The position numbers and the translations under genes are program-made. DNA of 64,000 bases from Candidatus Dadabacteria bacterium. GTDB taxonomy: Bacteria; Desulfobacterota_D; UBA1144; Nemesobacterales; CSP1-2. The notes beneath the pieces are model-generated. The model saw only the letters and a program-made list of their open reading frames with translations, searched no databases and was not told the DNA's origin. Shown here piece after piece: positions 24,013-43,729 of this stretch (its first letter is position 1; each line of letters opens with the position of its first letter). Where the stretch lies: NCBI GenBank assembly GCA_963805855.1, contig CAWDVW010000002.1, forward strand, positions 384,001 through 448,000, written 5' to 3'.

Positions 24013-24462
24013 ATGTCGAAATATATCATTAAAATCGCTGAAACTGATGATGAACTAAAAGAATATTTTCGTGTTCGCAACGAGGTTTTTGTAAAGGAGC
24101 AAGGGATATTTACCGAGACAGATGTTGACGAACATGATCCGAGCGCAACTCACATAATCGCAGTCGAAGCCTCAAGCAGTAATGTAGTAGGCGTTGTCAG
24201 ATGCTACAGTAAGGATGGAAACACATGGTTTGGCGGCAGACTGGGAGCCTTACCAGATTACCGCAATGGCAGGGTTGGGTCTCGTCTTGTGCGATTTGCT
24301 GTGAGTACTGCTAAATCAAAGGGCTGCAAAAAATTCCTGGCATACATACAGCCCAACAATGTGAGATTCTTCCAGAGACTTGATTGGGAAAAAATAGGAG
24401 AGCCAATTATCTATGAAGGCATGCCACACCAATTGATGGAAGCGAATTTGGATTCGTACTAA
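24013..24462 (+). CDS. GNAT N-acetyltransferase, MSMEG_0567 N-terminal / NitE-like
   Basis: R.EVFV.EQGIF, WFGGRL, LVRFAVSTA...GC..FLAYIQ..NV.FF.RL.W, PH.LM.A.L pattern; cluster context. Confidence 0.85.
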   Translation: MSKYIIKIAETDDELKEYFRVRNEVFVKEQGIFTETDVDEHDPSATHIIAVEASSSNVVGVVRCYSKDGNTWFGGRLGALPDYRNGRVGSRLVRFAVSTAKSKGCKKFLAYIQPNNVRFFQRLDWEKIGEPIIYEGMPHQLMEANLDSY

Positions 24463-24465
24463 TAT

Positions 24466-24563
24466 CACGATGCACGATGCAGGATTCAGGATGCAACTAT
24501 GAAAAAAAAGAACTTACATCGTGCATCATGCATCATGGATCATGTATGGTGAATCGTGCATCC
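24466..24563. repeat. Heptamer GATRCAN inverted-repeat element, copy 2
   Basis: CACGATG CACGATG CAGGATT CAGGATG ... CATCGTG CATCATG CATCATG GATCATG. Confidence 0.9.
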
Positions 24564-24610
24564 GCAATTGTTGACGATACCGTGTTATTAAAAAAGAATG
24601 GGAATCCACT

Positions 24611-25600
24611 ATGGATGAGCTAATAACTGCTTTACGCAGCTCCACACGTTTAGCCGAAAAGGTAAATTTAAGGAACCTCTGGGACATCATACCGGGTGTC
24701 TGCGAAGTTGACGGTAGAAATGTGATTCTTGGTGACGATGCGGCTGCTATAGAGACAAACGATGGTTATCTATTGGCGGCGGCTGAAGGCGTTTACCCCG
24801 AACTTCTGAAATCAAATCCCTACCTTGCAGGGCGCACCTCAGTCCTCACAAATGTGAGCGATATTTACGCTATGGGTGGAAGACCAATAGCGATCCTGGA
24901 TGTACTATTTTCACCCAATTTAGAAGAAGTCAATGATATAGTGCGAGGTATAAAGGATAATGCGTACCGATATCATGTACCACTTGTAGGAGGTCATTTA
25001 AATCGCCGAACAAATTTCTCTTCCCTCTCAGTCTTTATCATAGGTAGGGCTACAAGCCTACTCTCCAGTTTTAATGCCCAAGAAGGCGATGACTTGGTTT
25101 TCGTTTGCAGCCTAGATGGAAAATTCTATTCGGGATTTAATTTCTGGGATTCCTCCAGCGAATTGAGTAGTGAAGACGCTCTCAGACAATTGGAATTGTT
25201 TCCGCGACTTGCGGAAGAAGGAAAGGTTGATACCGCGAAGGACGTTAGCATGGCAGGTTTAATTGGATCAGTACTGATGCTTTTGGAGTGTTCCGGAAAA
25301 GGTGCGGAGATACAAATAGAGAGGATTCCGAAGCCTGATGAGATCCCATTGAGGGATTGGTTGATTACCTTCCCGAGTTACGGATTTATTCTATCGATAA
25401 GACCGCAATACACCGCAGACGTTAAGAAGATATTCGATTCCATTAATCTCACGTGCGAAGTGATCGGTAAGATTATCGGCGGCAGTAATGTCTCATTTGT
25501 AAAAAATGGCGCTGAGAAAAGACTATTCTGGGACACCGAAGTCCAGCCCTTAATTGGTATTGGAAAAGATAGATTTAATAAGGTGAAAAATGGGAAATGA
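24611..25600 (+). CDS. AIR synthase (PurM/SelD-fold)-related protein, sll0787/NitF-like
   Basis: GDDAAAI, NVSDIYAMGGRP, VGGH, AKDVSMAG, FPSYGF motifs. Confidence 0.88.
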   Translation: MDELITALRSSTRLAEKVNLRNLWDIIPGVCEVDGRNVILGDDAAAIETNDGYLLAAAEGVYPELLKSNPYLAGRTSVLTNVSDIYAMGGRPIAILDVLFSPNLEEVNDIVRGIKDNAYRYHVPLVGGHLNRRTNFSSLSVFIIGRATSLLSSFNAQEGDDLVFVCSLDGKFYSGFNFWDSSSELSSEDALRQLELFPRLAEEGKVDTAKDVSMAGLIGSVLMLLECSGKGAEIQIERIPKPDEIPLRDWLITFPSYGFILSIRPQYTADVKKIFDSINLTCEVIGKIIGGSNVSFVKNGAEKRLFWDTEVQPLIGIGKDRFNKVKNGK

Positions 25601-26177
25601 ACAGAATCAGATAGAGGACATAGTTTCCAAACTAGGTGAAAAAATCAAACGAATCCGATTGGATAGGGGCCTGTCCCTTAAAGACTTGTCGGTAAAATCG
25701 GGGATCTCCGCAGCAGCCATCCACAAGATAGAGTCTAATGGAATAATCCCGACTATAACGACCATGATGAAGATCTCCGACGCCCTGGGAAAAGAAGTAA
25801 GCTATTTCATCGAAGAAAAACGGGGGAAAAAAGATGTCTTTTACGTACCTGCTCGAAAACGTGAAAGCATTTTCACATTTAAGAAGGGATTAAAGCTTCG
25901 TGGCATTTCCGCAAAGAAATACGGAGATTTCATGATGACGGCCGCCTATGCGGTGGTTGATGTAGGGGCCTCAAGCGGTAGAAAACCAATGAAACATAGA
26001 GGAGAAGAGCTCGTATATTGCCTTAAAGGAAAAATGGAACTGCGAATAGGTAATGAAACATATACCCTTGGACCCGGCGACAGCATTCACTTCAGGACTG
26101 ACATCAATCATAGCTGGAAAAATACCGCCGACACTCAAGCAGAGTTAATTTGGGTGCTAGCCGTCGAGCCTTCATGA
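25590..26177 (+). CDS. XRE-family HTH regulator with C-terminal cupin
   Basis: LSLKDLS..SGIS...IHKIE HTH; H.GEELVY.L.G and GDSIHF...INH cupin motifs. Confidence 0.93.
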   Translation: MGNEQNQIEDIVSKLGEKIKRIRLDRGLSLKDLSVKSGISAAAIHKIESNGIIPTITTMMKISDALGKEVSYFIEEKRGKKDVFYVPARKRESIFTFKKGLKLRGISAKKYGDFMMTAAYAVVDVGASSGRKPMKHRGEELVYCLKGKMELRIGNETYTLGPGDSIHFRTDINHSWKNTADTQAELIWVLAVEPS

Positions 26178-26179
26178 GG

Positions 26180-26286: not shown

Positions 26287-26299
26287 TCTTATTAAGAAC

Positions 26300-27602
26300 A
26301 TGGTTGCTAAAATAAAAAGTCAGAAAAAAACAGAAACTAGGACATTAACGTATCTAGGTCAGCGAATTAATGAAGCCAACACACTTGCGGTAGACAGGAT
26401 CTTATCGGTTGAACCGGTTCTTCATTGATGTTGATACCGCAGTTAATGTAATACCGGGCATGACTCCCGATACTGTACTACATGCAGGTCCTCCGATTGA
26501 ATGGGAAAGAATGTGCGATCCGATGAAGAGGGCAGTTAGAGGAGCTTTAGTGCTCGAGGGCCTTGCGGAAAATGACGAGGCCGCGGACCAACTACTAAAA
26601 AGAAAAAAGGTAAAGCTCTCGCCAAATCATCACCATGACGCAGTGGGGCCTATGACCGGAATTATCTCGTCTTCAATGCCTGTTATTGTTACAAAAGACT
26701 CAACCTTCGGCAATAAAGTCTATTCCACGTTTAATGAGGGCGCAGGCAAAGTCCTATGGTTTGGGTCATTCGGAAAAGAGACCCTTGAGCGTCTCAAGTG
26801 GATTCGGGACATTTTTGGTCCCGTAATGAAGAAGGTTATCAAAAAAGCACAAGGCATCCCAATATGGAGCATCCTGGCCCAGGGAATTCAGATGGGAGAT
26901 GAGTGCCATAATCGTCACGCGGCATCATCAAATCTTTTTCTTAAAAGAATCCTAGAACCACTCGTTTCAATCGATCTTTCAAAAAAAGTCTTGTTGCAGG
27001 TCTATAACTTTATTGCCGGAAATAGCCATTTCTTTCTGAACATGACCATGACTGCATGTAAACTCTCGATGGACGCGGCAAGGGATATAAGAGAATCAAC
27101 CGTTGTCACAGCAATGTCTAGAAACGGGACTGATTTTGGTATTCGAATAAGTGGACTTGGGAATGAATGGTTCACGGCACCTGCTCCTTATCTCAAGGAT
27201 GCCCTTTATAACCCTGGATATAACTTCAATGACGGAGCCCCAGATATAGGCGATAGCTCAATCATAGAAACAATGGGACTTGGAGGGTTCGCCATCGCAG
27301 CCGCACCTGCAATGGCATCGTTTACCGGAGGAGGCTTTCAAGAGTCCATAAGAATTACAAAGGAGATGGGTCTAATAACTCTCGTAAAGAATCAGAAGTT
27401 CGGGATCCCGGTTTTGGATTTCGAGGGAACTCCCACAGGCATTGATTTACGAAAGGTCGTCGAAATTGGCATTAGTCCAAGTATAAACAGCGCCGTAGTA
27501 CATAAAAGCTCAGGCGCCGGTCAGATAGGCGCGGGAATCGTAAAGGCCCCATATGAATGTTTTTCGAAGGCGCTAAAGGCTTTTGGAAGGAAATACAGAT
27601 GA
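26300..27602 (+). CDS. DUF1116 / YlbE (AllG)-like protein, with an apparent single-base insertion near 26423
   Basis: LHAGPP, AVGPM.G, MGDECHNRH, RNG.DFGI, DIGDS motifs; upstream frame from ATG 26300 (...INEANTLAVDRILSVEPVL) joins IDVDTA if one base is removed. Confidence 0.85.
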
Positions 27603-27697: not shown

Positions 27698-29257
27698 ATG
27701 GCTATAGTCAGCACGGTTAAGAAAAACTTCTATCAGGATTCGATGAAGCTTATGCAGATTAGCCAAAAGCTAAGCAATCTTAGCGGAATCAAAAAGGCGG
27801 CAGCAATCATGGCAACTAAAGCTAATCTAGCTATGCTGAAGGAGACGGGATTACTTAAGAAAGAAACTGATTCAGCCAGTCCTAACGATCTTATAGTAGC
27901 AATTGAAGCAGAATCTGAAAAAGAAGCAAATGAAGCTCTAAAGATGTTGGACACCCTTCTTGCCCCTCATCAAGCCGGCATTACCGCAAAATTTGAATAT
28001 AAGGATCTTGATTCAGCCCAAAATGATTTGCCTCAGTCGAATATTGCAGTCATTTCCGTTCCCGGAGAATATGCAAAGTTGGAGGTCGCGAAGGCTGTTG
28101 ACAGGGATCTCCATGTCTTTCTGTTTAGCGATAACGTATCAATCGGTGAAGAGATTGAGCTCAAGCTTAGGGCAAAAGAGAAGGGCTTACTAATGATGGG
28201 TCCTGGTTGTGGAACCGCGATCATCAATGGAGTAGGACTTGGATTTGCAAATGTCGTCAATCGGGGTCCAATAGGGGTTATCGCAGCCGCCGGGACTGGA
28301 ATGCAAGAAGTTACTAGCCTGATAAACAATTGGGGATCAGGAATTTCGCACGCAATCGGAGTCGGCGGTAGAGACCTGTCTGACAAGGTGGGGGGAATAA
28401 TGACGATAGAGGCAATAAGGATGCTTCAGGGCGATGAAGGAACAAAAGCCCTTCTTCTGGTTTCCAAGCCCCCTTCAGATAAGGTAGCAAGAAGGGTCAT
28501 AGATTTTATTCGCAAAGGTGGCCTACCAGCTGTTATATGCTTTCTCGGAATGAAAAACATTAAGGCTAAAGATTCAAAAACGCAGTTTGCCACAAATTTG
28601 GACCAATCCGCGCTTGACGCAATTAAACTGGTGGGAGCAGGGAATACCGCTCCCAAGGTTCTTTCTCACAACAAGTGGAAAAAAGCCGCTCAGAAGTGTC
28701 AAAGCCTTTTAAATACCGATCAGATTTATCTTCGCGGTTTATTCTCTGGTGGAACCCTTTGCTATGAAGCCCAGCAAATCCTGACGCCAATGCTCGGCAA
28801 AATATATTCCAATGCCCCACTCGATAAGCAAAACAAATTAAGACATTCAAACGTTAGCAAGCAGCACACATGTATTGATCTGGGCGAGGAAGAGTTTACG
28901 AAGGGACGCCCTCATCCGATGATTGATGCGACACAGCGAAATGAACGGTTACTACAAGAGGCATCCAAGCCCGATGTTGCCGTGATCCTATTCGACGTGG
29001 TACTTGGATATGGTGCAAGCTCTGACCCTGCCGGTGATCTGATTCCGGCTATAGATGAATCAAACAGATTAGCGAAAAAGAAAGGCCGTTCTATCGCATT
29101 TGTAGCACATGTTTGTGGTACAGAGCAAGACCCTCAGGATCTAAAATCGCAGGTCAAGAAGCTGGAAAAAGCCGGAGTCATTGTTCTTCCCACAAACGCT
29201 TTAGCGTCCAGAGTAGCAGGGTTAATAGCAAAAGGCATGAAGACTAAAATATCCTAA
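27698..29257 (+). CDS. fdrA: FdrA (AllF)-like acyl-CoA-synthetase-fold protein lacking the short C-terminal domain
   Basis: YQDSMKLM, ISVPGEYA, FSDNV, MGPGCGT, GVGGRDLS, GLFSGGTL, GRPHPMID, GTEQDPQ. Confidence 0.92.
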   Translation: MAIVSTVKKNFYQDSMKLMQISQKLSNLSGIKKAAAIMATKANLAMLKETGLLKKETDSASPNDLIVAIEAESEKEANEALKMLDTLLAPHQAGITAKFEYKDLDSAQNDLPQSNIAVISVPGEYAKLEVAKAVDRDLHVFLFSDNVSIGEEIELKLRAKEKGLLMMGPGCGTAIINGVGLGFANVVNRGPIGVIAAAGTGMQEVTSLINNWGSGISHAIGVGGRDLSDKVGGIMTIEAIRMLQGDEGTKALLLVSKPPSDKVARRVIDFIRKGGLPAVICFLGMKNIKAKDSKTQFATNLDQSALDAIKLVGAGNTAPKVLSHNKWKKAAQKCQSLLNTDQIYLRGLFSGGTLCYEAQQILTPMLGKIYSNAPLDKQNKLRHSNVSKQHTCIDLGEEEFTKGRPHPMIDATQRNERLLQEASKPDVAVILFDVVLGYGASSDPAGDLIPAIDESNRLAKKKGRSIAFVAHVCGTEQDPQDLKSQVKKLEKAGVIVLPTNALASRVAGLIAKGMKTKIS

Positions 29258-29274: not shown

Positions 29275-30213
29275 ATGAAGGTAGCTGTAGTAGCATTTGG
29301 CGGAAACGCCCTCATGGGGCACGAGGGTAAAAGCAATTATGCAGACCAGATTAGGAGAACAGATACAATATGTAGAAAACTACTCGGCCTGTTTCAATTG
29401 GGATATAGGATTATAATCACCCACGGTAATGGTCCGCAGGTAGGAAATATCCTGATGCAGCAGGAATGTCTAATAGATTCTCTACCGCCAATGCCACTTG
29501 ACGTATGCAACGCAATGACACAGGGACAGATTGGATATATGATAGAACAGAGGTTACGAAACATATTGGAGGAAAAAAAGATCAAGAGGTCCGTTATAGT
29601 TTTAGCTACACAGGTAGTAGTGTCAGAAAATGATCCCGCATTTAAAAATCCAACAAAGTTCATCGGGCCTTTTTTCAGACAAGAGGAAACCGAAAGACTC
29701 GAAAAGGAGAAAGGTTGGGATATGAAAGAGGATTCAGGTCGGGGTTACAGACGTGTAGTTCCATCTCCAAGACCAATAGATATAGTAGAAAAGGACGAAA
29801 TCTCAGACATGGCAAACAGAGATTTAGTCGTAGTAGCATGTGGGGGTGGAGGAATTCCAGTGCTTAGAGACAAAAAAGGGAAACTAAAGGGCGTTGCCGC
29901 CGTCATTGATAAAGATTATGCAGCTGAAAGACTCGCGAGTCTCATAGGCGCGGATTCGCTGATTTTAATAACGCCCGTCGACAAGGTATCAATATTCTAC
30001 GGAACATCAAAACAGAAAGACCTTGGAAGAATATCACTCGAAGAATTGAAAGGTTACTACGATGAAGGGCATTTCCCGGCAGGGAGCATGGGGCCTAAGA
30101 TCGAGGCCACTATGAAGTTTATCAGCGAAGGCGGAAAAAGGACGATTATTACCTCGATAAAAGGTCTCGATGATGCGATAAAAGGCAAAGATGGTACAGT
30201 AATAACGCAATGA
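29275..30213 (+). CDS. arcC: Carbamate kinase
   Basis: GGNAL, HGNGPQVG, PTKFIG, RRVVPSP, GGGGIPV, VIDKD, GSMGPK. Confidence 0.96.
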   Translation: MKVAVVAFGGNALMGHEGKSNYADQIRRTDTICRKLLGLFQLGYRIIITHGNGPQVGNILMQQECLIDSLPPMPLDVCNAMTQGQIGYMIEQRLRNILEEKKIKRSVIVLATQVVVSENDPAFKNPTKFIGPFFRQEETERLEKEKGWDMKEDSGRGYRRVVPSPRPIDIVEKDEISDMANRDLVVVACGGGGIPVLRDKKGKLKGVAAVIDKDYAAERLASLIGADSLILITPVDKVSIFYGTSKQKDLGRISLEELKGYYDEGHFPAGSMGPKIEATMKFISEGGKRTIITSIKGLDDAIKGKDGTVITQ

Positions 30214-30506: not shown

Positions 30507-31352
30507 GTGAAAGTAAACAGAAAGGTTTTTGATGCCCATTCACATATAGGCGAGCTAGCAGCATATAAATTCTATGATTTGGCAGAACCTGTTAAACCCA
30601 CCGTAATCGAGTATCCAACTTATAAAGAATATCTAAAACATATGGACGAGTATGGAGTTGATCGAGCGATGGTGATTTCTAATTATGGAGTGCCGGACTC
30701 AGGTCAACCATTTACATTGAATCCAATTGTGATTGATGGTGTCCATCAGGCAGACCGCCTTGTTGGAGCTATTTGGGTTTCTGGTCTTGCAAAAGACAAA
30801 GAACGGACGGCTGAGGCATTAAAACACGTTAAAGAAAAAGGTATAGTTGCTCTAAAATCTACATGCCTTCTTGGGGGCACATACAATCCTGGAGAATGGG
30901 ATGATGAAGCGCGAGCATTATGGGAAAGCATCATTAACGCCGCCGAGCAAAATCACCTTGTATTACATATTCATACAAGCCCTGGCGGAGGTTCAGACAT
31001 CTCAAACGCACTCGAGCTAGTTAAACAGTATGGGAAAAGAATCAAAATACATCTGGTACACATGGGTGGATTTGTCAGCGGACATATAAAGCTGGTGCCA
31101 AAATTTATTAATTTGGTGAAAGAAGGTTTTATGGTTTATACGGATACAACTTGGGCAGTTGGCTTTGGGTCACGCTGGTTACTCAATGAGATTGAGAAAA
31201 CCGGAGTTGGTTCTGATAACGTCCTTTTTGCATCCGACACTCCGTGGAGTGACTTTCCTTCGGAGTTCTGGAAGATTGAAGGCGCAAGTATTTCTGAGGA
31301 ATTGAAAAATAAGATCTTTTGGGAAAATGCCCAGAAACTTTATTCTAGATAA
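30507..31352 (+). CDS. TIM-barrel metal-dependent amidohydrolase (Amidohydro_2-like)
   Basis: DAHSH, HIHT, HMGG, FASDTP and ENA..L motifs. Confidence 0.88.
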   Translation: MKVNRKVFDAHSHIGELAAYKFYDLAEPVKPTVIEYPTYKEYLKHMDEYGVDRAMVISNYGVPDSGQPFTLNPIVIDGVHQADRLVGAIWVSGLAKDKERTAEALKHVKEKGIVALKSTCLLGGTYNPGEWDDEARALWESIINAAEQNHLVLHIHTSPGGGSDISNALELVKQYGKRIKIHLVHMGGFVSGHIKLVPKFINLVKEGFMVYTDTTWAVGFGSRWLLNEIEKTGVGSDNVLFASDTPWSDFPSEFWKIEGASISEELKNKIFWENAQKLYSR

Positions 31353-31379: not shown

Positions 31380-31871
31380 ATGGCAGTCGACAGAGTAAAA
31401 GGAGAGAAACCAACTAAAGGAAAGGCGTTGGTAGATTATGAGGAGAAAGTATTTCCAGATCATAAAGCAAAGGAAGGGGAAAAGGCGTTATTCCTTATCC
31501 ACTCGGTGCCCTATGAAGGATCTGTGGCTGGTATTAACATGCTTACAGCTATAAGGGCTAAAAAGAAGGGTTATGATGTTAGTGTACTGTTTTACGGCCC
31601 CGCTTCCGGCATACCAGTATATCGGGGCTGGCCCAACGTTGGGGACGACGGCTATGGTGCTGGGATACAGTTATACCCAAACCTTGTCGCAAGATTGATT
31701 AATGAAGGAATAACGGTCTATGCATGTCGCTTCTCAGCTGCTTCGCTTTGCGGTCTCAGAGAAGATGACTTTCTGGAGGGTGTAAGGCCGATACATCCGA
31801 CCGACATTTTGGACATAGTAATCGAACACCATAGAGCCGGTGCAATGATGTTCAGCACTTGGACTGTTTGA
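31380..31871 (+). CDS. MSMEG_0572 / sll0783 / NitB-family DsrE-like protein
   Basis: LVDYEEKVFPD.KA..GEKAL, H.V.YEGS, YGP, VYACRFS, terminal TWTV. Confidence 0.88.
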   Translation: MAVDRVKGEKPTKGKALVDYEEKVFPDHKAKEGEKALFLIHSVPYEGSVAGINMLTAIRAKKKGYDVSVLFYGPASGIPVYRGWPNVGDDGYGAGIQLYPNLVARLINEGITVYACRFSAASLCGLREDDFLEGVRPIHPTDILDIVIEHHRAGAMMFSTWTV

Positions 31872-33185: not shown

Positions 33186-33213
33186 GTAGGGAACGCATAT
33201 ATGCGTTCCCTAC
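33186..33213. repeat. Perfect GTAG-ended palindrome (REP-like)
   Basis: GTAGGGAACGCATATATGCGTTCCCTAC. Confidence 0.85.
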
Positions 33214-34647: not shown

Positions 34648-34663
34648 ACAAGAGGTAACAAAA

Positions 34664-34924
34664 TTGGCAGAAAATAAGTCGTTCAGTCAATGGTTGAGAA
34701 AAAACGCTGAAAAGTACCTGCTGGAGGCAGCGGCTGATGATCTAATAGCCCGCTATCCCAATCTTTGTGCAAAGCCTTACCGCGAAGAAGGGCTTGGTCC
34801 ACTTTTTTGGAGGAAGGTATTCGTTCCACTCTATACCTCTATTCCCTGGAGCGTACGTAAAAAAATTATTCTTCTTACCTCATACCCTGGTGGAAAACGC
34901 CCGCACTGGAAGAGTTTTACTTAA
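34664..34924 (+). CDS. Small hypothetical protein inside the cluster
   Basis: TTG start after AGAGGT; tightly packed between flanking co-directional genes. Confidence 0.7.
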   Translation: MAENKSFSQWLRKNAEKYLLEAAADDLIARYPNLCAKPYREEGLGPLFWRKVFVPLYTSIPWSVRKKIILLTSYPGGKRPHWKSFT

Positions 34925-34929
34925 TTCCG

Positions 34930-35910: not shown

Positions 35911-37078
35911 GATAGCCTTATTTACATATTCAACTAAGCCGAGAGGAGGCGTCGTACATACGCTCAGATTGGCCGAGGAATTAATCGGTCTAAAACATGA
36001 CGTACATGTTTATACCCTATCCACCGGGAATGGTTTTTATAGAAACGTAGACGTTCCCCATACACTTATCCCCTGCCCGGTGGTGAACTATCCAAGCATC
36101 GATGAAAAGATAGAAAGCTACATCCGAATCTACTACGAATATCTCTCGTCCGTAAGAGATCTTTACGATATCTACCACGCTGAGGATTGTATCTCAGCAA
36201 ATGCACTATTAGAACTGCGCGATAACGGATTTATCAAGTCGTTTGTAAGGACCGTCCATCACCTGGATGATTTCACTTCTAAATCCTTGATTGAATGCCA
36301 GTCGAAAAGTATATTGAAACCGGATTTTGTTATGGTTGTTAGCAGATACTGGGAAAGAGAACTGCGCTCGCTATACTCCTTAAACCCTATACTAACTCAA
36401 AATGGAGTGGATCTCGACAGGTTTTCAAAAGCTAAAGGAGACAAATATTCAAAAGAGTTAGCGAAAAATAGGTTTTCGGTCAATGGTTACAGGGTAATTT
36501 TGAGTATAGGGGGAATCGAACCCCGGAAGAATACGTTAACCACGCTCAGGGCGTTTAACATTGCAAGATCGCATTTTATGAAAAAGGGTGAGCGGGTGAT
36601 ATGGTTAATCGGAGGCGGAGAAACACTCTTTGATTACAGGGCATATCGCGAGGAATTCTTTTCTCAAGTCGAGAGGCTAGGACTCAAAATGGATCAAGAC
36701 ATAAGAGTTCTTGGGAATATACCAGAAGTGAATATGCCATACCTTTACGACGCGGGAGATATATTTGTATTTCCGTCCCTCAAAGAAGGATGGGGACTCG
36801 TGGTGCTTGAGGCCATGGCATCAGGAGTTCCGGTTATCGCTTCCAATATTGAACCGCTGACCGAGTATTTAAAGGATAGTGAGAACGCTGTTCTTATTCC
36901 TCCCATGGACCATGAAGCTCTGGCTCAAAAGATAATAAGTGTTTTGGAAAACGAAGACCTTCGAGAAAAACTGGCAACAAATGGACTGAGAACTGCCAAC
37001 TCCTATAGCTGGAGCAAGACAGCGTTAATGCACTCGGAGTTTTACCACCGAATTTCCAGACCCGTCATACCAGTTTAA
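35894..37078 (+). CDS. GT4 glycosyltransferase, MSMEG_0565 family
   Basis: TYSTKPRGGVVHT, HAEDCISANAL, RTVHH, GGIEPRKN, GGETLFDY, EGWGLVVLEAMASG. Confidence 0.92.
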   Translation: MMRSLKIALFTYSTKPRGGVVHTLRLAEELIGLKHDVHVYTLSTGNGFYRNVDVPHTLIPCPVVNYPSIDEKIESYIRIYYEYLSSVRDLYDIYHAEDCISANALLELRDNGFIKSFVRTVHHLDDFTSKSLIECQSKSILKPDFVMVVSRYWERELRSLYSLNPILTQNGVDLDRFSKAKGDKYSKELAKNRFSVNGYRVILSIGGIEPRKNTLTTLRAFNIARSHFMKKGERVIWLIGGGETLFDYRAYREEFFSQVERLGLKMDQDIRVLGNIPEVNMPYLYDAGDIFVFPSLKEGWGLVVLEAMASGVPVIASNIEPLTEYLKDSENAVLIPPMDHEALAQKIISVLENEDLREKLATNGLRTANSYSWSKTALMHSEFYHRISRPVIPV

Positions 37079-37237
37079 TCTTCTGGCTAAAATGTGAGGT
37101 AACGAATCTCGCGTGGAACGAGATAAATGGCATCGACTTCTACGGATGGCCTCCATTCTTTATAGCCCGGCCATCAAGAATATCTCGCCGACCGTGTATA
37201 AGACTGCACCTCCATTTAGCGGATGCGCATTAACCAG

Positions 37238-37684
37238 CTAGGAAGCTGCGATCTGCTGCATCGACCAGATTAGCGCGAGTACTTCTGTGACATTGACAGG
37301 CGGTCCGCCGCCGATATCTGCCGCGTGGACCTCAATGGTCTCACCGAATATGTTGTAAACGTGGCGCTCCCCAACCCCGCTCAGGCTGTCGCTGACCAGA
37401 TCTATGGCTCGCTCAGCATCTGAAAAGTCCTCGTGCCAGGAGTTAAATGCAACTAAGTCCCTTGTCGTCACATGCTGAACAATTGCTCGAGCCCTGTATT
37501 TATTTTGATCAACTACCCATTCGATCGTTGAAAATGGCCATAGCTGATACACGGTCACACCCGGTTGAAGATTGTAATTTTTCTTCTCACCGATAACTCC
37601 AACGGAAAACCTCAAACCACCTATCGCAAGCTCGGTGCCTGGGATGATCTTAGGTGGCTTTCGTGCGGGATTCTTTTTTTTCAT
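37238..37684 (-). CDS. Hypothetical protein inserted antisense within the cluster
   Basis: 148-aa ORF with AAGGAGG RBS; no motif recognised. Confidence 0.6.
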   Translation of the reverse strand: MKKKNPARKPPKIIPGTELAIGGLRFSVGVIGEKKNYNLQPGVTVYQLWPFSTIEWVVDQNKYRARAIVQHVTTRDLVAFNSWHEDFSDAERAIDLVSDSLSGVGERHVYNIFGETIEVHAADIGGGPPVNVTEVLALIWSMQQIAAS

Positions 37685-38311
37685 ATCGACCCTCCTTAAA
37701 GATCGGTGTTGTTCCGATCAATGACGTTGTAAAATATGAACAAATGGTTGCGCATCCACGTTTTAAAGAACACTAATCAATAACTCTTTCAGCAAGCTGC
37801 AGAGAATCTTCGAGTTAACACGCTTAGGACATTCATCATCTATTTCAAGTTTAATCAAACACTAGTTCTCAAGTCAATAGGGAAAGTAAAATAGTGGAAA
37901 ACCCGCTGAAGAAGAATATTCTTATTATATAGAAAGAGCAGTTAGTCAAACAACCTAATTAATATTTACCGTTCAACAGGCTCGCGGCTCGGTGTGAAAG
38001 GATTTATACACTCTTAATATTATAATGTAAGTCCAGACCGTACATCCTGAGTCGAGTCGAAGGATGATATCTAAGAAATTAAATCTGAGAAAATCGCCCT
38101 TCAATCATGTCCTTCAACAGGCTCAGGACGAACGGGTTTTTGACCACGCTCAGTAAGTTTCTTTTTCTTTAAAATAAAGCTACTGATTGACCGGATTCGG
38201 CATCACGGCTAAACTAGAACGAGCATTTAGGTTAGAATTAAGTAAAAATCATGTACTTAACGATTGTTCTTATTGATTGAGGCTAATAAACGAGTTCTAT
38301 GGTGAAACTTC

Positions 38312-38761
38312 ATGGAAGTTCAGGCTGTCTGGAAAAGAAATTATCAGGTCGAGGTAAAGGCAAGGCAATTCAACGTACCCATAGATGAAGCGCCGGAGTT
38401 CAATGGTGAGGACACAGGTATGATGCCGACTGAACTATTCCTCTGCTCGCTAGCTTCTTGCTATTGTCTTTCTCTCGTATATGTTGCTAAAAAAAAACAA
38501 TTGAAGCTTAAGGATATGCGGGTGAATGTAATAGGCAAAAAGGACAAAAAACATTTCACGTTCTCAAGACTGATCGTAGAGGTTGAGAGTTCGTTACCAT
38601 CACGGGATATAGAAGAAATTATCGATCCTGCGATAAAATATTGCTATGTGAGTAATACGGTGTCCAAATCATGTCCGATTGAATACGTAGTTAGTAAGAA
38701 GACAGGGGACAGAATGCAGGAGACAGGAGACAGGAGAAAAAAATCTCTTCGTAACTTGTAA
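38312..38761 (+). CDS. OsmC-family protein
   Basis: D.P...GED.G..P.ELFL.SLASC and KYC.VSNT motifs; C-terminal tail is repeat-derived. Confidence 0.88.
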   Translation: MEVQAVWKRNYQVEVKARQFNVPIDEAPEFNGEDTGMMPTELFLCSLASCYCLSLVYVAKKKQLKLKDMRVNVIGKKDKKHFTFSRLIVEVESSLPSRDIEEIIDPAIKYCYVSNTVSKSCPIEYVVSKKTGDRMQETGDRRKKSLRNL

Positions 38762-38797
38762 CTTGTGTATTCTGAATACTTTTGGAGGAGAAATATC

Positions 38798-39256
38798 TTG
38801 GCGATAAAGTTCAAAATCAAAAAAGGCTATTTTCAAGATGCGCTGCGTTTGATGCGAATTTCCAAGAATATAAGTGACATCGAAGGAGTCGAAAAGGCCG
38901 TTGCAGTAATGGCCACGGAAAAGGCCAAATTTGCGCTGAAAGACGCCGGTCTGATGACCGCAGAAATAAATGAGGCAAGTGGAAGCGATCTGGCGATGGT
39001 CGTCCAGGGTAAATCTGTAGAAATTGCAGAGAAAACGTTAGAAAAGATGGAAGAGATGGTATCCTCGGGTGGTGCTCAGGCCAGGAGGCCGTCCTCATCT
39101 AATATACTTAACGATGAGATTCAAGCCATAAATATCGGACTTGAGACCTTTAAGGACGCATTAGAAGCTCAGGGGGTAAAGGTAAAGCACGTCGACTGGC
39201 AAGTCCCCGCAAAGGGAGACGTGAAATTAATAAACATTCTGAAGAAGTTATATTAA
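38798..39256 (+). CDS. Second FdrA-related protein: FdrA N-terminal domain fused to the FdrA C-terminal domain
   Basis: YFQDALRLM...VMATE resembles the N-terminus of 27698; C-terminal INIGLETF..AL..QGV.V.HVDW..PA.G; TTG start after GGAGG. Confidence 0.8.
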   Translation: MAIKFKIKKGYFQDALRLMRISKNISDIEGVEKAVAVMATEKAKFALKDAGLMTAEINEASGSDLAMVVQGKSVEIAEKTLEKMEEMVSSGGAQARRPSSSNILNDEIQAINIGLETFKDALEAQGVKVKHVDWQVPAKGDVKLINILKKLY

Positions 39257-39283
39257 TTTTTGAACCACGACGAGAAAATACTA

Positions 39284-39352
39284 AGAATTCAGAAGGCAGA
39301 AGTCAGAATTCAGAAGAAAAAATTTTGGCACATGGATTCTGACTTCCAAATC
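39284..39352. repeat. Heptamer (AGAANTC-type) inverted-repeat element
   Basis: AGAATTC AGAAGGC AGAAGTC AGAATTC ... GATTCT GACTTCC. Confidence 0.65.
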
Positions 39353-39387
39353 CTAGTTAAAGCTTTGGCGCCGCTGCGGTATAAATA

Positions 39388-39954
39388 ATGAGCATTAGAA
39401 ATCCTGAGAGATTAAGAGAGGTTCTGTCTAACCCTAAGGGGCTTGCACGGGCGTTTAGCCGTCACACCTATGGGATGCTTTCCTGGGTGGATTTGTTCGG
39501 AGCAAAGTTAAAGTCAATAAGAGGGATCGAAATGAAGCTGATCACGTCTAGGATAATTGCCGACAATGCGAAGCACGCGAAGCTCTTTTCCGAAAGAGCC
39601 AGAGAACTGGGCGAGAATCCTGAAAAATATAAGCCGCCTCAAATCGGGCAAAAGATATATGATATCCTCGAATCCTATACCGATCCAATTGACGAATTTG
39701 CTTACGCCTGGGGATCCCTGATACATTTTTCTGCCTTACTAGAGATATATCGCAGCGTCGCAGATCCAAGGAGTCGAGAAATAATTGAGGAGATTCAAAG
39801 GGATGTTAAAGAGCACTTAACCGTACTTGAGAGATATTTTGAAAAAGAATTACTCACACCTGAAAGGCAAAAACGCGCCGAAGAGGTTAAAATGATAGCT
39901 GACAAAATCTACACCGATAGAGAAGATGAGGAGATAATTTGGTATGCAGCATAG
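39388..39954 (+). CDS. Ferritin-like four-helix protein with atypical metal-ligand motifs
   Basis: I.AD-NAKH...R..ELG and I..D-VKEH helix pattern of the ferritin-like fold. Confidence 0.6.
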   Translation: MSIRNPERLREVLSNPKGLARAFSRHTYGMLSWVDLFGAKLKSIRGIEMKLITSRIIADNAKHAKLFSERARELGENPEKYKPPQIGQKIYDILESYTDPIDEFAYAWGSLIHFSALLEIYRSVADPRSREIIEEIQRDVKEHLTVLERYFEKELLTPERQKRAEEVKMIADKIYTDREDEEIIWYAA

Positions 39955-40798
39955 GTTGACGCCAACTTTGGAGGAGTTGCTTACAAACCTGCCCTTCTAT
40001 AGTCCAAGGAGATGGTATTTTGACTTGGCTTCTCTTTTTCTAAGGTCAATCGGGACGTGTTCCGAAGGGATAAAACTAGGGTTTAAACATGGTTTCGATT
40101 CAGGAATGATCATGAACTATATTTACAATAATACGCCGACTGGTAGATTCTACGTGGGTAAACTCATAGACAGCATTTTTTTAAATCAGATTACCTGCAA
40201 GGCTTTCAGAGCGACAAAAGATATACAGAAGAATATGATCAAGGATTACATTCAAGAGAGAAATGGCAACTCGACCTTTGTAGTTGATTTGGCATCGGGA
40301 AAGGCCGACTACGTCTACGACGTTCTCCGTGACACTGACGCATCTGTTAAGGTTCTTCTTCGTGACATTGATAAAAGCGCGTTAATGGAAAGCAGAGAAA
40401 TCGCTAAAAATTTTGATTTAGAAAACGTTGTTAGCTATGAACTTGCAAATGCTCTCGACTCTCACAGTCTGAGCAGGATTAGTCCGAAACCCAATCTTGT
40501 AATCGAGGTAGGACTTTATGGAATTATCCACGATGACGAGCAAATAAGATCGCATCTCAAGGACCTTAAAAATATACTTGATCCAGATGCAGTTCTTTTT
40601 AACGTTCAAACGTACAATCCCCAGATCGAACTGATAGCTAGGACGCTTAAGAATCAAGCTGGAGAAAGATGCGTATGGCATCTACGTTCTGCAGGTCTTG
40701 TGATAGATTGGGCAGAGGAGGCCGGATTCAAAGATCCGAATGTCATCATGGATCCATATGGAATTTACGCGGTTGTCATGATGAGAAACGGCAATTAA
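39944..40798 (+). CDS. Class I SAM-dependent methyltransferase
   Basis: GFKHGFDSG, VVDLASGKADYV motif I, acidic RDID motif II, PQIELIAR. Confidence 0.8.
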   Translation: MQHRLTPTLEELLTNLPFYSPRRWYFDLASLFLRSIGTCSEGIKLGFKHGFDSGMIMNYIYNNTPTGRFYVGKLIDSIFLNQITCKAFRATKDIQKNMIKDYIQERNGNSTFVVDLASGKADYVYDVLRDTDASVKVLLRDIDKSALMESREIAKNFDLENVVSYELANALDSHSLSRISPKPNLVIEVGLYGIIHDDEQIRSHLKDLKNILDPDAVLFNVQTYNPQIELIARTLKNQAGERCVWHLRSAGLVIDWAEEAGFKDPNVIMDPYGIYAVVMMRNGN

Positions 40799-40809
40799 GA
40801 AGAAATTCC

Positions 40810-40867
40810 AGCCACAGAGTTCACTGAGAAAAAAATATTTAAGTAAATACTCTGTGTCCTCTGTGGC
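40810..40867. repeat. 9-mer-type inverted repeat (GCCACAGAG...CTCTGTGGC)
   Basis: GCCACAGAGTTCACTGAG ... CTCTGTGTCCTCTGTGGC. Confidence 0.75.
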
Positions 40868-40888
40868 TAAAGAATAAAGGAGATCAAG

Positions 40889-42292
40889 GTGGGCAAAGAG
40901 AGATTCGTACTAGGATGGGAAGGTGGAAGCGAAGATTCATTTGATATCAAAGATATTGTATCTGATAGGGTAAGATCTGTTATAGAAAGTCCGCATGGAA
41001 TGTGGAACTACATGACATACAGGGATGCAATAGGGATATTGGGCTTAGATGCCGGGGAGATATACAGAGAAGGAAGGATTGATTTAGATCCCAAAGAATG
41101 GGCTGATTTTGGCTGGATGTCTTGCTACGCTGGACCTCCCAAGAGCGCCATCAAAGAAATGAAATCCAGAACAAAGGCATCAAACATTAATCCCTATTCA
41201 CCTGATCTTATTAATCCGCTCAGGGATGCGTGTGCTTTATTGAAATTCAAACGACCTAGAGGAGAAGAATTTGAAGTCATAGGAACGGAGGGAGGACAGG
41301 CAGGAATTTCTTACTTTCTCCAATCTACTCTAAATCCCGGAGATGAAGTCATTATCACCGATCCGGGATATTTCCATTTTGAATCTGCAATTCTTATGGC
41401 CAGGGGCGTGCCGGTGAGGATTCCTCTTGATTCTAAAAATGGGTTCTGTTTAGACCCCGACGAGGTCAAAGATTGTATCACTCCCAGGACAAAAGTTTTG
41501 ATTATCTGTGACCCGATTAATCCTTTCGGAACCATTCAGTCCAGAGAGAGTCTATTAGATCTAATCGAGCTTGCGAATAAATCCAATATTTTGATCCTTA
41601 ATGATATTACCCATAACACGCATCAAATCGACCCGACTGCACAACATTACGCGATGAGTTCACTGTGGAGGGAAATTAATGTTGACAGGGTGGTTTCGGT
41701 CTTCAGCGTGTCGCATGGGTATGGAATGGCGGGTGTCCGCATCGGATTCCTGGCCGGCCATCCCAAGCTTATGAGAACATGTTTGTTGACTAAAATTTCT
41801 TTAACCAGGCTTAATACCAATTTAATTGCTCAGTACGGCGCCATTGCAGCATTAAATGATCATGCATACATTCAGAAATCAGAAAAGATTATAAGACGCA
41901 ACTACCGGGTCATAAAGGGCATAATCGATAATACCGAAGGGTTATCGATTCCGGTAGAACCCAAGTACGGATTTTCAATGGTCTTGGATGTTTCTGGAAC
42001 CGGGGTAACTGCCCAGGAATTGACCGTGGCTTTATTTAAACACCGAGTAGCTGTATATCCCGGAGACGGGCTGGGAGATATTGGTGCAACTGACTACATA
42101 AGGCTTAATATTTCCCGTCCGGACATTTGGGCATTTAGGCATTTTCGCAATGTTCTGCCGATGGCTGTCGAGGAAGCGAAATCGGGTATTTATCGCAACA
42201 GCGTCGCCCAATTTTTTAAGGGTAAGAAAACAAAGCGTGCTCGCAATATCTTACAGAAAATGAATGATTTGCATCTGGCTCGAGAACCTTAG
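40889..42292 (+). CDS. Class I/II aminotransferase-fold PLP enzyme with His in place of the catalytic Lys
   Basis: NPGDEVI..DPGY, P.NP.G, ILND, SVSHGYGMAGVRIG, YIRL motifs. Confidence 0.85.
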   Translation: MGKERFVLGWEGGSEDSFDIKDIVSDRVRSVIESPHGMWNYMTYRDAIGILGLDAGEIYREGRIDLDPKEWADFGWMSCYAGPPKSAIKEMKSRTKASNINPYSPDLINPLRDACALLKFKRPRGEEFEVIGTEGGQAGISYFLQSTLNPGDEVIITDPGYFHFESAILMARGVPVRIPLDSKNGFCLDPDEVKDCITPRTKVLIICDPINPFGTIQSRESLLDLIELANKSNILILNDITHNTHQIDPTAQHYAMSSLWREINVDRVVSVFSVSHGYGMAGVRIGFLAGHPKLMRTCLLTKISLTRLNTNLIAQYGAIAALNDHAYIQKSEKIIRRNYRVIKGIIDNTEGLSIPVEPKYGFSMVLDVSGTGVTAQELTVALFKHRVAVYPGDGLGDIGATDYIRLNISRPDIWAFRHFRNVLPMAVEEAKSGIYRNSVAQFFKGKKTKRARNILQKMNDLHLAREP

Positions 42293-42365
42293 ATCGGTAG
42301 TCGGCTATCAGAAAGGATTAACAAGTTATAGAATAATTGATAGATATAACTTACGACGACGTTCT

Positions 42366-42417
42366 GTAGGTAACGCATGCCTGCCCTGAGCGCGGTCGAA
42401 GGGGATGCGTTCCCTAC
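42366..42417. repeat. GTAG palindrome with a second element nested in its loop
   Basis: GTAGGTAACGCAT + GCCTGCCCTGAGCGCGGTCGAAGGGG + ATGCGTTCCCTAC. Confidence 0.8.
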
Positions 42418-42475
42418 GCAATAATTACCCGATTAGGTTCTTAAAAATCATTCGAGACGATCAATCTCATCACAA

Positions 42476-43729
42476 ATGGAAAAGATAGAAGGAGTTTCAG
42501 TAGAAAAGCTTGTCAATGATTTCGGTTCCCCCCTTTTCATTGTTTCTGCTAAGACTATCAGAGAGAATCTAAAGAGGTTTCGTAGCGAATTTTCAACTAG
42601 GTATCCAAAAGTTGAAGTAGCCTATTCCTATAAAGTTAACTGTCTGAGTGGGGTGCTGGAGATAATACACAATGAAGGGGCATGGGCCGAAGTAGCCTCT
42701 GGCTTTGAATATGAATTAGCAAGAAAGATCGGAGTTCCTGGTAAATCCATTGTTTTTAACGGTCCCTACAAGAAAAAAGAGGAAATTAACAAGGCAATTG
42801 AAGAAGGCGCCTTAATTAATGTTGACAACGAAATTGAATTAAAGCTGTTGGAGGAAATTGCATCCGAATTTCAAAAGCCAATTGAGGTGGGTATCAGACT
42901 AAATACCGATGTTGGGATAAAGCAGTTGCCTGATAGATTTGGATTTAACATTGAATCAGGCAGAGCCTTGGAGATCGTAAGCTACTGTACAACGAAAACG
43001 CCAATCAGGATAGTAGGGGTCCACATCCATCTGACAAGCTACATCATTTCCCCTGAAGTCTTCAATAGTCAGACCCCTGCAAAGAGTATAGAACTTATCT
43101 GGCCGAAAGACTCAAATTTGTACAGGCTAGCGGCGGATAAAATAACTGATTTTGCCGACGAAATAAGAAAGAGATTTGGCATAAGCTTAAAGTACATTGA
43201 CATGGGAGGCGGGTACCCGACACTTGATTCTATCACAGCCTATGCAGACGCGATAGCTGAGCCGATTCTGGAGGCTTTCAATCACATCCACCCCCTATTG
43301 ATACTGGAACCTGGAAGAGCAATTGTAAAGGATGCTGTACAGATGATAACAACAGTAGTAGGCGCTAAAGAACTCATGAACGGAATTAGGTCAATCGTGG
43401 TTGATGCGGGAATTAACATGATTCCGACATCTTCTTGGAAGTTTCAGGAGATCGAACCCGTGGCTAAAGGTCGCGGCAACCTACGAGAAACGATTGTCTA
43501 TGGGCCACTTTGCCTTCAGACAGACATTTTGGGTATAACAAAACTCCCACATCTGAACGTGGGAGACAGGCTTGTTATAAAAAACGTCGGCGCATATAAC
43601 ATTTCTCAATCTAGTTCGTTTATATTCCCGCGCCCTATTATAATTCTTATTGATAAAAACAAGGTAACAGTTCTAAGACGTTCAGAAACAATAAAGGAGA
43701 TTTTATCTTACGAAGACCGCATATCGTAA
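42476..43729 (+). CDS. Fold-type III PLP decarboxylase (LysA/ornithine decarboxylase family)
   Basis: YSYKVN (PLP Lys), VASGFE, FNGP.K, HIH, MGGG, EPGR, GPLC, GAY motifs. Confidence 0.9.
   Translation: MEKIEGVSVEKLVNDFGSPLFIVSAKTIRENLKRFRSEFSTRYPKVEVAYSYKVNCLSGVLEIIHNEGAWAEVASGFEYELARKIGVPGKSIVFNGPYKKKEEINKAIEEGALINVDNEIELKLLEEIASEFQKPIEVGIRLNTDVGIKQLPDRFGFNIESGRALEIVSYCTTKTPIRIVGVHIHLTSYIISPEVFNSQTPAKSIELIWPKDSNLYRLAADKITDFADEIRKRFGISLKYIDMGGGYPTLDSITAYADAIAEPILEAFNHIHPLLILEPGRAIVKDAVQMITTVVGAKELMNGIRSIVVDAGINMIPTSSWKFQEIEPVAKGRGNLRETIVYGPLCLQTDILGITKLPHLNVGDRLVIKNVGAYNISQSSSFIFPRPIIILIDKNKVTVLRRSETIKEILSYEDRIS

Follow-up and report, generated by a model that had tools for sequence, protein, structure and literature searches.

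Introduction

The Nit1C gene cluster was defined by Podar et al. in 2005 as a set of seven genes encoding hypothetical protein 1, a nitrilase, a radical S-adenosylmethionine (SAM) enzyme, an acetyltransferase, an AIR synthase, a further hypothetical protein of about 100 amino acids (aa) and a flavoprotein, with a glycosyltransferase gene inserted in part of the lineages, and the function of its accessory genes has been unexplained since that time (PMC1199592). A separately described group of genes, allFGHK, encodes in Escherichia coli the AllFGH enzyme, which converts oxalurate to oxamate and carbamoyl phosphate, and AllK, which then makes ATP, and it is considered a catabolic unit (PMC11326118). 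Here we describe a cluster in which members of both groups are interleaved. It lies at positions 24013-43729 of a stretch of 64,000 nucleotides (positions 384,001 to 448,000, forward strand, of contig CAWDVW010000002.1, assembly GCA_963805855.1) from a Candidatus Dadabacteria bacterium, and this whole stretch is referred to below as the window.

In a review of 2024, NitB and NitG still figure among the proteins whose function is unknown, and the Nit1C nitrilase is tied to cyanide assimilation in Pseudomonas (PMC11049912). For the canonical Nit1C cluster of Mycobacterium smegmatis, a more than 500-fold induction by nitrogen starvation was reported, and the cluster conferred peroxide resistance and raised the NADPH/NADP ratio (PMC6039565). 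The E. coli AllFGH enzyme was assayed in the carbamoylating direction, with carbamoyl phosphate and oxamate (PMC11326118), and in nitrifier genomes allFGHK genes are reported to be collocated with those of biuret and triuret hydrolases (PMC12625717).

The combined arrangement in the window is real and conserved, far beyond what chance would produce, and it very probably constitutes one conserved system, a second type of Nit1C. In place of the nitrilase, the flavoprotein NitH and ORF6, this type carries a protein of the Amidohydro_2 family, a flavoprotein resembling coenzyme A disulfide reductase (CoADR) together with a 96-aa protein, denoted o96, and a carbamoyltransferase of the AllF/AllG/AllH type. 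Nit1C and allFGHK are each known separately; their nitrilase-free combination as one cluster is new. The original prediction for this region, made from the sequence alone, had not recognised the combination as a characterised system, and no paper on it was found in a literature search that did not extend to supplementary files.

Gene Content and Comparison with Known Systems

Open reading frames (ORFs) were assigned to families using Pfam and NCBIfam, and NCBIfam scores were judged against curated cut-offs. The plus strand between 24013 and 43729 carries 19 ORFs, all co-directional. The co-directional genes of named families that had been predicted, about 19 in number, all exist, and Pfam and NCBIfam agree with the family names; the gene list had overlooked the 96-aa ORF at 34634-34924 and a minus-strand ORF at 37238-37684. 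The genes are listed below with their scores in bits, followed where given by the cut-off.

24013-24462 (+): GNAT acyltransferase of the MSMEG_0567/Sll0786 family, NitE-type (TIGR04045, 161.4 vs 68.45; Pfam Acetyltransf_1)
24611-25600 (+): sll0787 AIR-synthase-like protein of the PurM superfamily, NitF-type (TIGR04049, 335.8 vs 321.3; AIRS and AIRS_C)
25590-26177 (+): regulator with XRE helix-turn-helix and cupin domains, PuuR-like (HTH_3, Cupin_2; NF007408 PuuR, 64.8 vs 211, below cut-off)
26409-27602 (+): AllG (DUF1116) homologue, subunit of an oxamate-carbamoyltransferase-like complex (PF06545, 279.5 vs 27)
27698-29257 (+): FdrA/AllF homologue lacking the C-terminal tail (NF004760, 501.8 vs 433)
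29275-30213 (+): carbamate kinase, arcC type (TIGR00746, 383.5 vs 358.25)
30507-31352 (+): Amidohydro_2 metal-dependent hydrolase, hydratase or decarboxylase (PF04909, 59.5)
31380-31871 (+): NitB/MSMEG_0572/Sll0783 DsrE-like protein (TIGR04044, 174.2 vs 109.85)
32006-33136 (+): MSMEG_0568-family radical SAM enzyme, NitD-type (TIGR04043, 336.1 vs 303.7)
33271-34647 (+): CoADR/NADH-oxidase-like flavoprotein (Pyr_redox_2, 162; TIGR03385, 274.7 vs 578.8)
34634-34924 (+): o96, 96-aa protein without a family (no Pfam or NCBIfam match even at E<=5)
34930-35910 (+): AllH (DUF2877) homologue (PF11392, 73.9 vs 25)
35894-37078 (+): MSMEG_0565-family GT4 glycosyltransferase (TIGR04047, 387.6 vs 259.85)
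37238-37684 (-): 148-aa ORF without a family, in a 1.2-kb gap, with a Shine-Dalgarno-like AAGGAGGG before its ATG
38312-38761 (+): OsmC/Ohr-like protein (PF02566, 67.4)
38765-39256 (+): mini-FdrA, 163 aa (BLASTP to E. coli FdrA)
39388-39954 (+): ferritin-like, possible di-iron protein (weak MiaE_2 match, 23.2, below the cut-off of 25.2)
39944-40798 (+): Methyltransf_20 SAM methyltransferase (PF12147, 191.5)
40889-42292 (+): class I/II pyridoxal phosphate (PLP) enzyme of aminotransferase or C-S lyase fold (PF00155, 117.6; best NCBIfam matches below cut-off)
42476-43729 (+): Fold-III PLP decarboxylase, diaminopimelate/ornithine decarboxylase-like (Orn_Arg_deC_N, 118.8; lysA 223 vs 298 and FslC 200 vs 500, both below cut-off)

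Five signature families are common to the window and the Nit1C clusters of Pseudomonas (nitBCDEFGH), Synechocystis (sll0783-0787) and M. smegmatis (gpr, MSMEG_0565-0572). The predicted Nit1C core stands for these five of the eight Nit1C families, whereas the NitH, ORF6 and nitrilase families are absent genome-wide, and the window adds Amidohydro_2, the AllF/G/H-like proteins, carbamate kinase, XRE-cupin, OsmC, mini-FdrA and a variable tail. A search of the host genome, which has a size of 3.1 Mb and is 93.8% complete, with the Nit1C nitrilase profile TIGR04048 gave a best score of 225.4 against a cut-off of 502.6, and both CN_hydrolase genes behind this score lie on another contig in unrelated contexts. 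The description of the cluster as nitrilase-less thus extends to the whole genome. The flavoprotein, on the other hand, is not of the NitH type, which the prediction had overlooked; the best genome-wide score with the NitH profile TIGR04046 was 22.9 against a cut-off of 498, and the protein is CoADR-like, with a single redox cysteine, Cys47, that is invariant in 10 aligned rows.

In all relatives a gene for o96 is conserved, and it always lies directly after that of the flavoprotein. Nit1C, too, has a protein of about 100 aa next after its flavoprotein, though there the two belong to other families: the ORF6/MSMEG_0570 profile TIGR04042 had no match in the genome, and the possibility that o96 is a diverged ORF6 was rejected on this ground and on an hhalign probability of 1.5%. 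Within the ESM Atlas, o96 fell in unnamed or generic clusters only.

NitB occurs as a single copy in the genome and shows only 44-50% identity to canonical NitB proteins, while one cysteine, Cys116, is present in all 119 aligned sequences (65 canonical and 54 hybrid). A PDB sequence search with NitB yielded marginal matches only. In a quick tree of NitB the hybrid types of both phyla fell on one side of a branch with an SH-aLRT value of 98. Among the other core proteins, the AIR-synthase-like protein keeps the GDD motif (D42/D43) in 82 rows and lacks a HypE-like C-terminal cysteine, and GT4, after its own family, matches best the glycosyltransferases BshA and MshA, at 93 and 77 bits, neither of which reaches its cut-off.

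All four families of E. coli allFGHK are also found in the window. AllG is 44% identical to E. coli YlbE/AllG over 391 aa, carbamate kinase 39% identical to YbcF/AllK, and AllH 29% identical to YlbF over the C-terminal 127 aa. FdrA is 40% identical to E. coli K-12 FdrA and, since it aligns to residues 2-479 only, the last 75 or so residues of the E. coli protein remain unmatched. The window genes differ from allFGHK in not being contiguous. They are embedded among Nit-type genes, with AllG, FdrA and carbamate kinase (the last starting 18 bases past the FdrA stop codon) followed by five genes, then by AllH and, further on, by mini-FdrA, and the window lacks allECD-type neighbours. The FdrA tail is carried by a separate protein, mini-FdrA, which BLASTP aligned to residues 6-101 (31%, E 2e-12) and 497-554 (35%, E 4e-7) of E. 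coli FdrA. It comprises the N-terminal 100 aa or so of FdrA joined to the C-terminal tail that the full-length FdrA of the window has lost, and it is devoid of the CoA-binding and ligase domains. The FdrA tail motif lies directly upstream of AllG in actinobacterial loci and, in one high-GC locus (L162), mini-FdrA precedes AllG. We infer that mini-FdrA may be a fourth subunit of the transferase; a complex prediction for AllG with mini-FdrA (score 0.01) spoke neither for nor against this. An AllG match in one genome of the phylum (G093:C2:173114-173635) is split in two by an in-frame TGA, and may represent a decaying copy or an assembly error.

Recurrence and Co-Inheritance of the Combined Cluster

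Prokaryotic genomes, one for each species, were scanned with NitB, and of the 504 relatives found the best 80 were analysed, each locus reaching 10 kb to either side. The 12 closest loci, with NitB identities of 79-88% and proteins 39-88% identical to those of the window, all carry the hybrid set in the order of the window, as far as their contigs reach. The next three, from Actinomycetota and with NitB identities of 48-49%, hold AllG, AllH, FdrA, carbamate kinase, the flavoprotein, o96, NitB, GT4, radical SAM, GNAT and XRE-cupin in another order and on both strands, with genes for nitrile hydratase beta and alpha and an accessory gene directly after NitB. The remaining 65 loci are canonical and yielded no match to AllG, FdrA, carbamate kinase, AllH or o96 at E<1e-6. 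In one canonical locus (L057, 1413-2703), genes for nitrile hydratase alpha and beta lie some 8 kb upstream of NitB, in addition to that for the nitrilase.

Metagenomes were scanned using an alignment of the flavoprotein, and the best 80 of 473 relatives comprised 22 contigs of the window's kind (Dada-type) and 58 high-GC contigs (GC 0.61-0.76). Profiles built from the matches were applied to six-frame ORFs of the loci. For loci of at least 15 kb, the numbers carrying each family are given below in the order Dada-type (14 loci), high-GC (9 loci, including L018) and canonical (53 loci).

XRE-cupin: 14, 6, 0
Flavoprotein: 14, 9 (8 of these 9 loci were selected through it), 1
o96: 14, 9, 0
NitB: 14, 9, 53
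Radical SAM: 14, 4, 53
GT4: 14, 7, 38
AllG: 14, 4, 0
FdrA: 14, 7, 1
AllH: 14, 2, 0
Carbamate kinase: 14, 6, 0
GNAT: 13, 5, 53
AIR-synthase-like: 13, 2, 53
Amidohydro_2: 12, 3, 0
OsmC: 11, 4, 0
Mini-FdrA: 10, 1, 0
Ferritin-like: 10, 0, 0
Methyltransferase: 9, 0, 0
PLP enzyme: 8, 2, 2
Decarboxylase: 5, 2, 0
Nitrile hydratase: 0, 2, 1
Nitrilase: 0, 0, 53

The neighbourhood analysis suggested with the original prediction thus finds the combined architecture in Dada-type, Actinomycetota and high-GC loci, the last showing at least six arrangements. Loci L125 and L129, for example, have the order NitB (minus strand), carbamate kinase, PLP enzyme, decarboxylase, FdrA, GT4, OsmC, flavoprotein and o96, followed in L125 by AllH, while L162 has mini-FdrA, AllG, AllH, GT4 (minus), FdrA (minus), XRE (minus), flavoprotein, o96, NitB, Amidohydro_2, radical SAM, GNAT and AIR-synthase-like (minus). 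Functional coupling is indicated because the gene set stays constant while its order is shuffled.

Actinobacterial hybrids bearing a nitrile hydratase (L018-L020, L133, L161 and L163) share with the window the flavoprotein-o96-NitB core, AllG/AllH, FdrA, carbamate kinase, GT4, radical SAM, GNAT and XRE-cupin. They differ in carrying nitrile hydratase for Amidohydro_2, in order and strands, and in the proximity of genes for ComA, Lyase_1 and PALP. Such neighbours, comprising ComA, DUF7714, one or two Lyase_1/argininosuccinate-lyase-like genes and PALP, were observed in several high-GC loci (L018:3-5510; L132:13943-18170; L155:14291-15799), and an argininosuccinate-lyase-like gene adjoins AllG in five high-GC loci. 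The set resembles bacterial genes for coenzyme M, the pathway of which is described in PMC9457059. A link of the window to coenzyme-M genes was rejected: ComA is absent from its genome, and the window contains no homologue of either the PALP gene or the argininosuccinate-lyase-like (Lyase_1) gene that was tested.

Co-inheritance was examined in 120 species genomes of the window's GTDB phylum. NitB was found in 51 and AllG in 53 of these, and 50 carry both; NitB occurs alone in one genome and AllG alone in three, and those four are 77-90% complete. In 42 of these 50 genomes the two genes share contig and strand, AllG lying 3.4-5.1 kb upstream of NitB; in the other eight, whose assemblies are fragmented, they fall on separate contigs. 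Both are present in each of the 14 further genomes of the family to which the window belongs. The prediction that the Nit-like genes and the FdrA/DUF1116/DUF2877/carbamate kinase genes act as one system agrees with the co-occurrence of NitB and AllG in 50 of the 54 genomes of the phylum in which at least one of them is found. Its author had allowed beforehand that the two sets might never be co-located elsewhere; they are clearly co-located, both in the phylum and in other lineages.

Full-length mini-FdrA is present in 52 of the 120 genomes, including 49 of the 51 with NitB, and lies on the contig of NitB in 36 of these 49, at a distance of 6.0-14.6 kb in 35 of the 36; in one genome the two lie on either side of the contig start. 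This co-occurrence argues that the tail of the cluster is part of the same system, and bears out the joining of mini-FdrA to it in the original prediction.

The Position Beside NitB

Directly after NitB a nitrilase gene is found in all 65 canonical loci and in none of the 15 hybrid genome loci. Among 17 high-GC loci of at least 8 kb, five have nitrile hydratase alpha and beta after NitB, four have Amidohydro_2 and seven have neither within reach, and in the remaining one NitB was not seen. Amidohydro_2 directly precedes NitB in the window and its own family, and in other Dada-type loci it is divergent and upstream of GNAT, beside a gene of the Zn_ribbon_8 (FmdB-like) family. The position next to NitB thus appears, from gene content, to hold an enzyme acting on C-N bonds in each type, be it nitrilase, nitrile hydratase or Amidohydro_2. 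The Zn_ribbon_8 gene encodes about 124 aa with a CxxC...CxxC pattern and lies between the divergent Amidohydro_2 gene and GNAT in L101 (1564-1935, minus strand), L105, L107, L008 and others; homologues occur in nine loci, all outside the window's family, and none in the window.

The Amidohydro_2 protein keeps its metal ligands, with D9, H11, H13, H154, H156, H185, H193 and D244 invariant in 24 rows. An AlphaFold model (pLDDT 89, pTM 0.90) gave Foldseek matches to ACMSD, LigI-like, IDCase and LigJ folds at 13-20% identity, and a PDB sequence search produced marginal matches only. Foldseek thus recovers the PF04909 fold without a specific subfamily, such that no substrate can be named, and by its modelled fold the enzyme may carry out hydrolysis, hydration or decarboxylation.

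Proposed Function

In the catabolic scheme that we propose, the enzyme beside NitB would turn a nitrogenous substrate handled by the core into a carbamoyl intermediate of ureido or acyl-urea type. The AllFGH-like complex would phosphorolyse this intermediate to carbamoyl phosphate, and carbamate kinase would convert the latter, with ADP, to ATP, NH3 and CO2. The module would therefore free ammonia in three steps with a gain of energy, where the canonical nitrilase would do so in one. The original prediction had put forward, by homology, a route on which an N-rich compound may become a ureide, with carbamoyl phosphate, ATP and ammonia recovered from it. The arginine and agmatine deiminase pathways operate by carbamate-kinase-coupled phosphorolysis of ureides, using transcarbamylases of the OTC/PTC type. 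The logic proposed for the window is the same, with a ureido compound and phosphate giving carbamoyl phosphate and then ATP, NH3 and CO2, whereas the transferase would be of the unrelated FdrA/DUF1116/DUF2877 type.

This is the simplest reading because the module occurs in just those clusters that have no nitrilase, accompanied in some lineages by a nitrile hydratase, and the use of AllFGHK for oxalurate in E. coli and its contexts with biuret and triuret hydrolases in nitrifiers suggest a general outlet for carbamoyl groups. By analogy, the catabolic direction would be favoured by those allFGHK systems and by the nitrogen-starvation induction of canonical Nit1C, as well as by the genome having its own CarB for biosynthetic carbamoyl phosphate, encoded just upstream of the cluster. 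A nitrile hydratase would yield a carbamoyl donor only from a nitrile bound to a heteroatom, and its substrate in those lineages might be of an N-cyano or S-cyano type; no other prediction from the comparison is as useful. Overall we give the complete scheme of hydrolase, AllFGH-like complex and carbamate kinase, reconstructed from gene families, an even chance of being correct.

Several observations weigh against it. A hydrolase position beside NitB is not universal, as the seven high-GC loci with neither enzyme demonstrate, and the metagenomic loci were selected through the flavoprotein. Identities of only 29-44% to the E. coli subunits mean that specificity may differ. Genome-wide, no allantoinase over cut-off, no AllC and no AllD/Ldh_2 were found, so that the known E. 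coli source of the AllFGH substrate is missing, and oxalurate from allantoin is disfavoured as the substrate. No conserved transporter was found, an upstream AGCS symporter not being conserved in relatives, and Rfam, at gathering thresholds, detected two tRNAs far upstream only, with no riboswitch hinting at a ligand. Finally GT4, GNAT, radical SAM, the methyltransferase, the PLP enzymes and the ferritin-like protein look more biosynthetic than catabolic.

This last point leads to the strongest competitor of the catabolic scheme, which we regard as possible though distinctly less probable. Carbamate kinase would supply carbamoyl phosphate, the AllFGH-like complex would carbamoylate an acceptor, the AIR-synthase-like enzyme, in the manner of the PurM family, would activate the oxygen of the carbamoyl or amide group, and the radical SAM, GNAT, GT4, methyltransferase, PLP and di-iron enzymes would build a small nitrogen-rich metabolite or a thiol-type cofactor of low molecular weight. 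Such a direction agrees with that in which the E. coli enzyme was assayed (PMC11326118), with the thiol-cofactor glycosyltransferases BshA and MshA being the nearest other matches of GT4, albeit below cut-off, and with a tail encoding a methyltransferase, PLP enzymes, a decarboxylase and a ferritin-like protein. High-GC versions adjoin ComA, Lyase_1 and PALP genes of the coenzyme-M type (PMC9457059), and thiol chemistry would fit Cys116 of NitB, the single-cysteine flavoprotein of CoADR type, the OsmC cysteines and the peroxide and NADPH effects in M. smegmatis (PMC6039565). Against this, the genome's CarB already serves the biosynthesis of carbamoyl phosphate, the nitrilase, nitrile hydratase and amidohydrolase found at one position look degradative, the coenzyme-M-type genes are missing here, and the composition of the tail differs between lineages. 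Carbamate kinases of the bacterial arcC type, moreover, normally run towards ATP.

A second alternative, which we consider improbable, is thiol capture of cyanide, cyanate or thiocyanate. The NitB cysteine or a thiol cofactor would carry an S-cyano or S-carbamoyl group, a hydrolase or hydratase would make the thiocarbamate, the AllFGH-like complex would pass the carbamoyl group to phosphate and the flavoprotein would recycle thiol and disulfide. The invariant Cys116, the CoADR-type flavoprotein, the two conserved cysteines of OsmC (C50 and C111, in 38 rows), the nitrile hydratase adjacent to NitB in some lineages, the hydratase LigJ among the Foldseek neighbours of the amidohydrolase and the absence of a cyanase from the genome are all compatible with it, as is the link of the Nit1C nitrilase to cyanide assimilation in Pseudomonas (PMC11049912). 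The proposal is nevertheless wholly inferential, and no rhodanese was seen among the Pfam and NCBIfam matches of the cluster. The same chemistry is run in reverse by HypF and HypE. HypE belongs to the PurM family, as does the AIR-synthase-like protein, but the latter lacks the C-terminal cysteine of HypE. Furthermore, hydration of S-cyano groups is not known for Amidohydro_2 enzymes. A more general form, equally improbable in our estimate, starts from the exchange of nitrilase for a nitrile hydratase or metal hydratase together with the AllFGH-like transferase and carbamate kinase. It is that the Nit1C core of both types handles a heteroatom-bound cyano or carbamoyl group, and that the hybrid performs an ATP-conserving nitrogen assimilation of the cyanide, cyanate or thiocyanate type via S-carbamoyl and carbamoyl phosphate. 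The most attractive carrier would then be the invariant NitB cysteine or a thiol cofactor made by GT4, GNAT, the AIR-synthase-like protein and radical SAM. If true, this would be a previously unknown route, the reverse of HypF/HypE cyanide-ligand chemistry.

That the locus joins two independent neighbours, an allFGHK-like operon degrading oxalurate or ureides and a Nit1C-like stress cluster linked only by regulation or descent, is very unlikely: each module is known separately elsewhere, the nearly fixed Dada-type order could be inherited, and promoter- and terminator-like sites leave the units undefined, but against this stand the 50 phylum genomes with both genes as opposed to one and three, incomplete ones, with a single gene, the interleaving that parts AllH and mini-FdrA from AllG, FdrA and carbamate kinase by Nit-type genes, an association outlasting the rearranged orders of the high-GC lineages, the lack of an allantoin route, and a module found in none of the 65 canonical clusters.

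Tail, Gap and Flanking Regions

The ferritin-like protein matched the ferritin-like fold and bacterioferritin in PDB sequences at a marginal E of 0.004, and its ESM Atlas neighbours, of ferritin, rubrerythrin and DUF455-like kinds, provide a lead only; the PDB neighbours of the class I/II PLP enzyme are aspartate aminotransferases. A PALP-family enzyme of cysteine-synthase fold occurs in 12 Dada-type loci (including L100, L101 at 17583-18533, L105, L107, L008 and L013), flanked on one side by the decarboxylase and on the other by either the class I/II PLP enzyme or the ferritin-like protein. It has no homologue in the window, and the composition of the tail thus varies between families.

A gap of 1.2 kb (37079-38311) interrupts the row between GT4 and OsmC and, since it holds the minus-strand ORF, the row must comprise at least two transcription units. 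The 148-aa product had no counterpart by tblastn in 160 related loci, and NCBIfam searches at E<=5 with this ORF, o96, the ferritin-like protein and Amidohydro_2 gave nothing useful. It is probably a lineage-specific insertion, outside the system, that splits the cluster from the OsmC-mini-FdrA tail. Promoter-like sites (29 against 39.3 expected from shuffles) and terminator-like sites (15 against 17.8) were not enriched and consequently do not delimit transcription units. A perfect palindrome with a 12-bp stem, followed by TTTT, lies at 33186-33213 between the radical SAM and flavoprotein genes. It occurs at six places in the genome, one with a different loop, which marks it as a dispersed repeat similar to repetitive extragenic palindromic (REP) elements rather than an attenuator or a terminator specific to the cluster.

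The cluster is flanked by housekeeping genes, with CarB, GreA and an alanine/sodium (AGCS) symporter upstream and TonB downstream. Directly upstream of CarB, at 16891-17949, is a homologue of BpsA_C (branched-chain polyamine synthase), and past the cluster, convergent with TonB, is a gene at 44822-45454 (minus strand) whose cysteine-rich product of 210 aa has a hydrophobic segment at its N-terminus and matches no family. Some 20 kb from the cluster, a truncated ORF of the phage-integrase family lies beside two tRNA genes, with an IS200-like transposase fragment nearby (834-1238, 1354-1515 and 2588-2920), possibly an old integration site.

Expression and Habitat

Near-identical DNA, covering at least half of the sampled words, was found in 13 runs from salt-marsh, marsh, mangrove, soil and unlabelled metagenomes. 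Contigs from two salt-marsh RNA libraries match the window at mostly 99% or more, those of library X19 including pieces of AllG, Amidohydro_2, radical SAM and the flavoprotein and those of X20 including NitB and the flavoprotein; they cover no part of 34640-43900 or 24000-25991. Some of these contigs end exactly at the edges of the palindrome at 33186-33213. The matches hint that both modules are expressed in one sample, with DNA carry-over in the libraries a possible source.

Implications for Nit1C and the Dadabacteria

The core of Nit1C has long been unexplained despite strong phenotypes in Pseudomonas and M. smegmatis (PMC1199592, PMC11049912, PMC6039565). A widespread second type, in which the nitrilase has given way to enzymes of defined chemistry, namely carbamate kinase and a transferase of carbamoyl groups to phosphate, narrows down what the core common to both types may act upon. 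The exchange amounts to a natural experiment on the core and provides a chemical clue that can be tested. The cluster adds to the contexts in which the recently defined FdrA/DUF1116/DUF2877 transcarbamylase is known to occur and shows that FdrA can take a split form. In addition, it points to a nitrogen and energy trait that is phylum-wide among these uncultured Dadabacteria-like bacteria.

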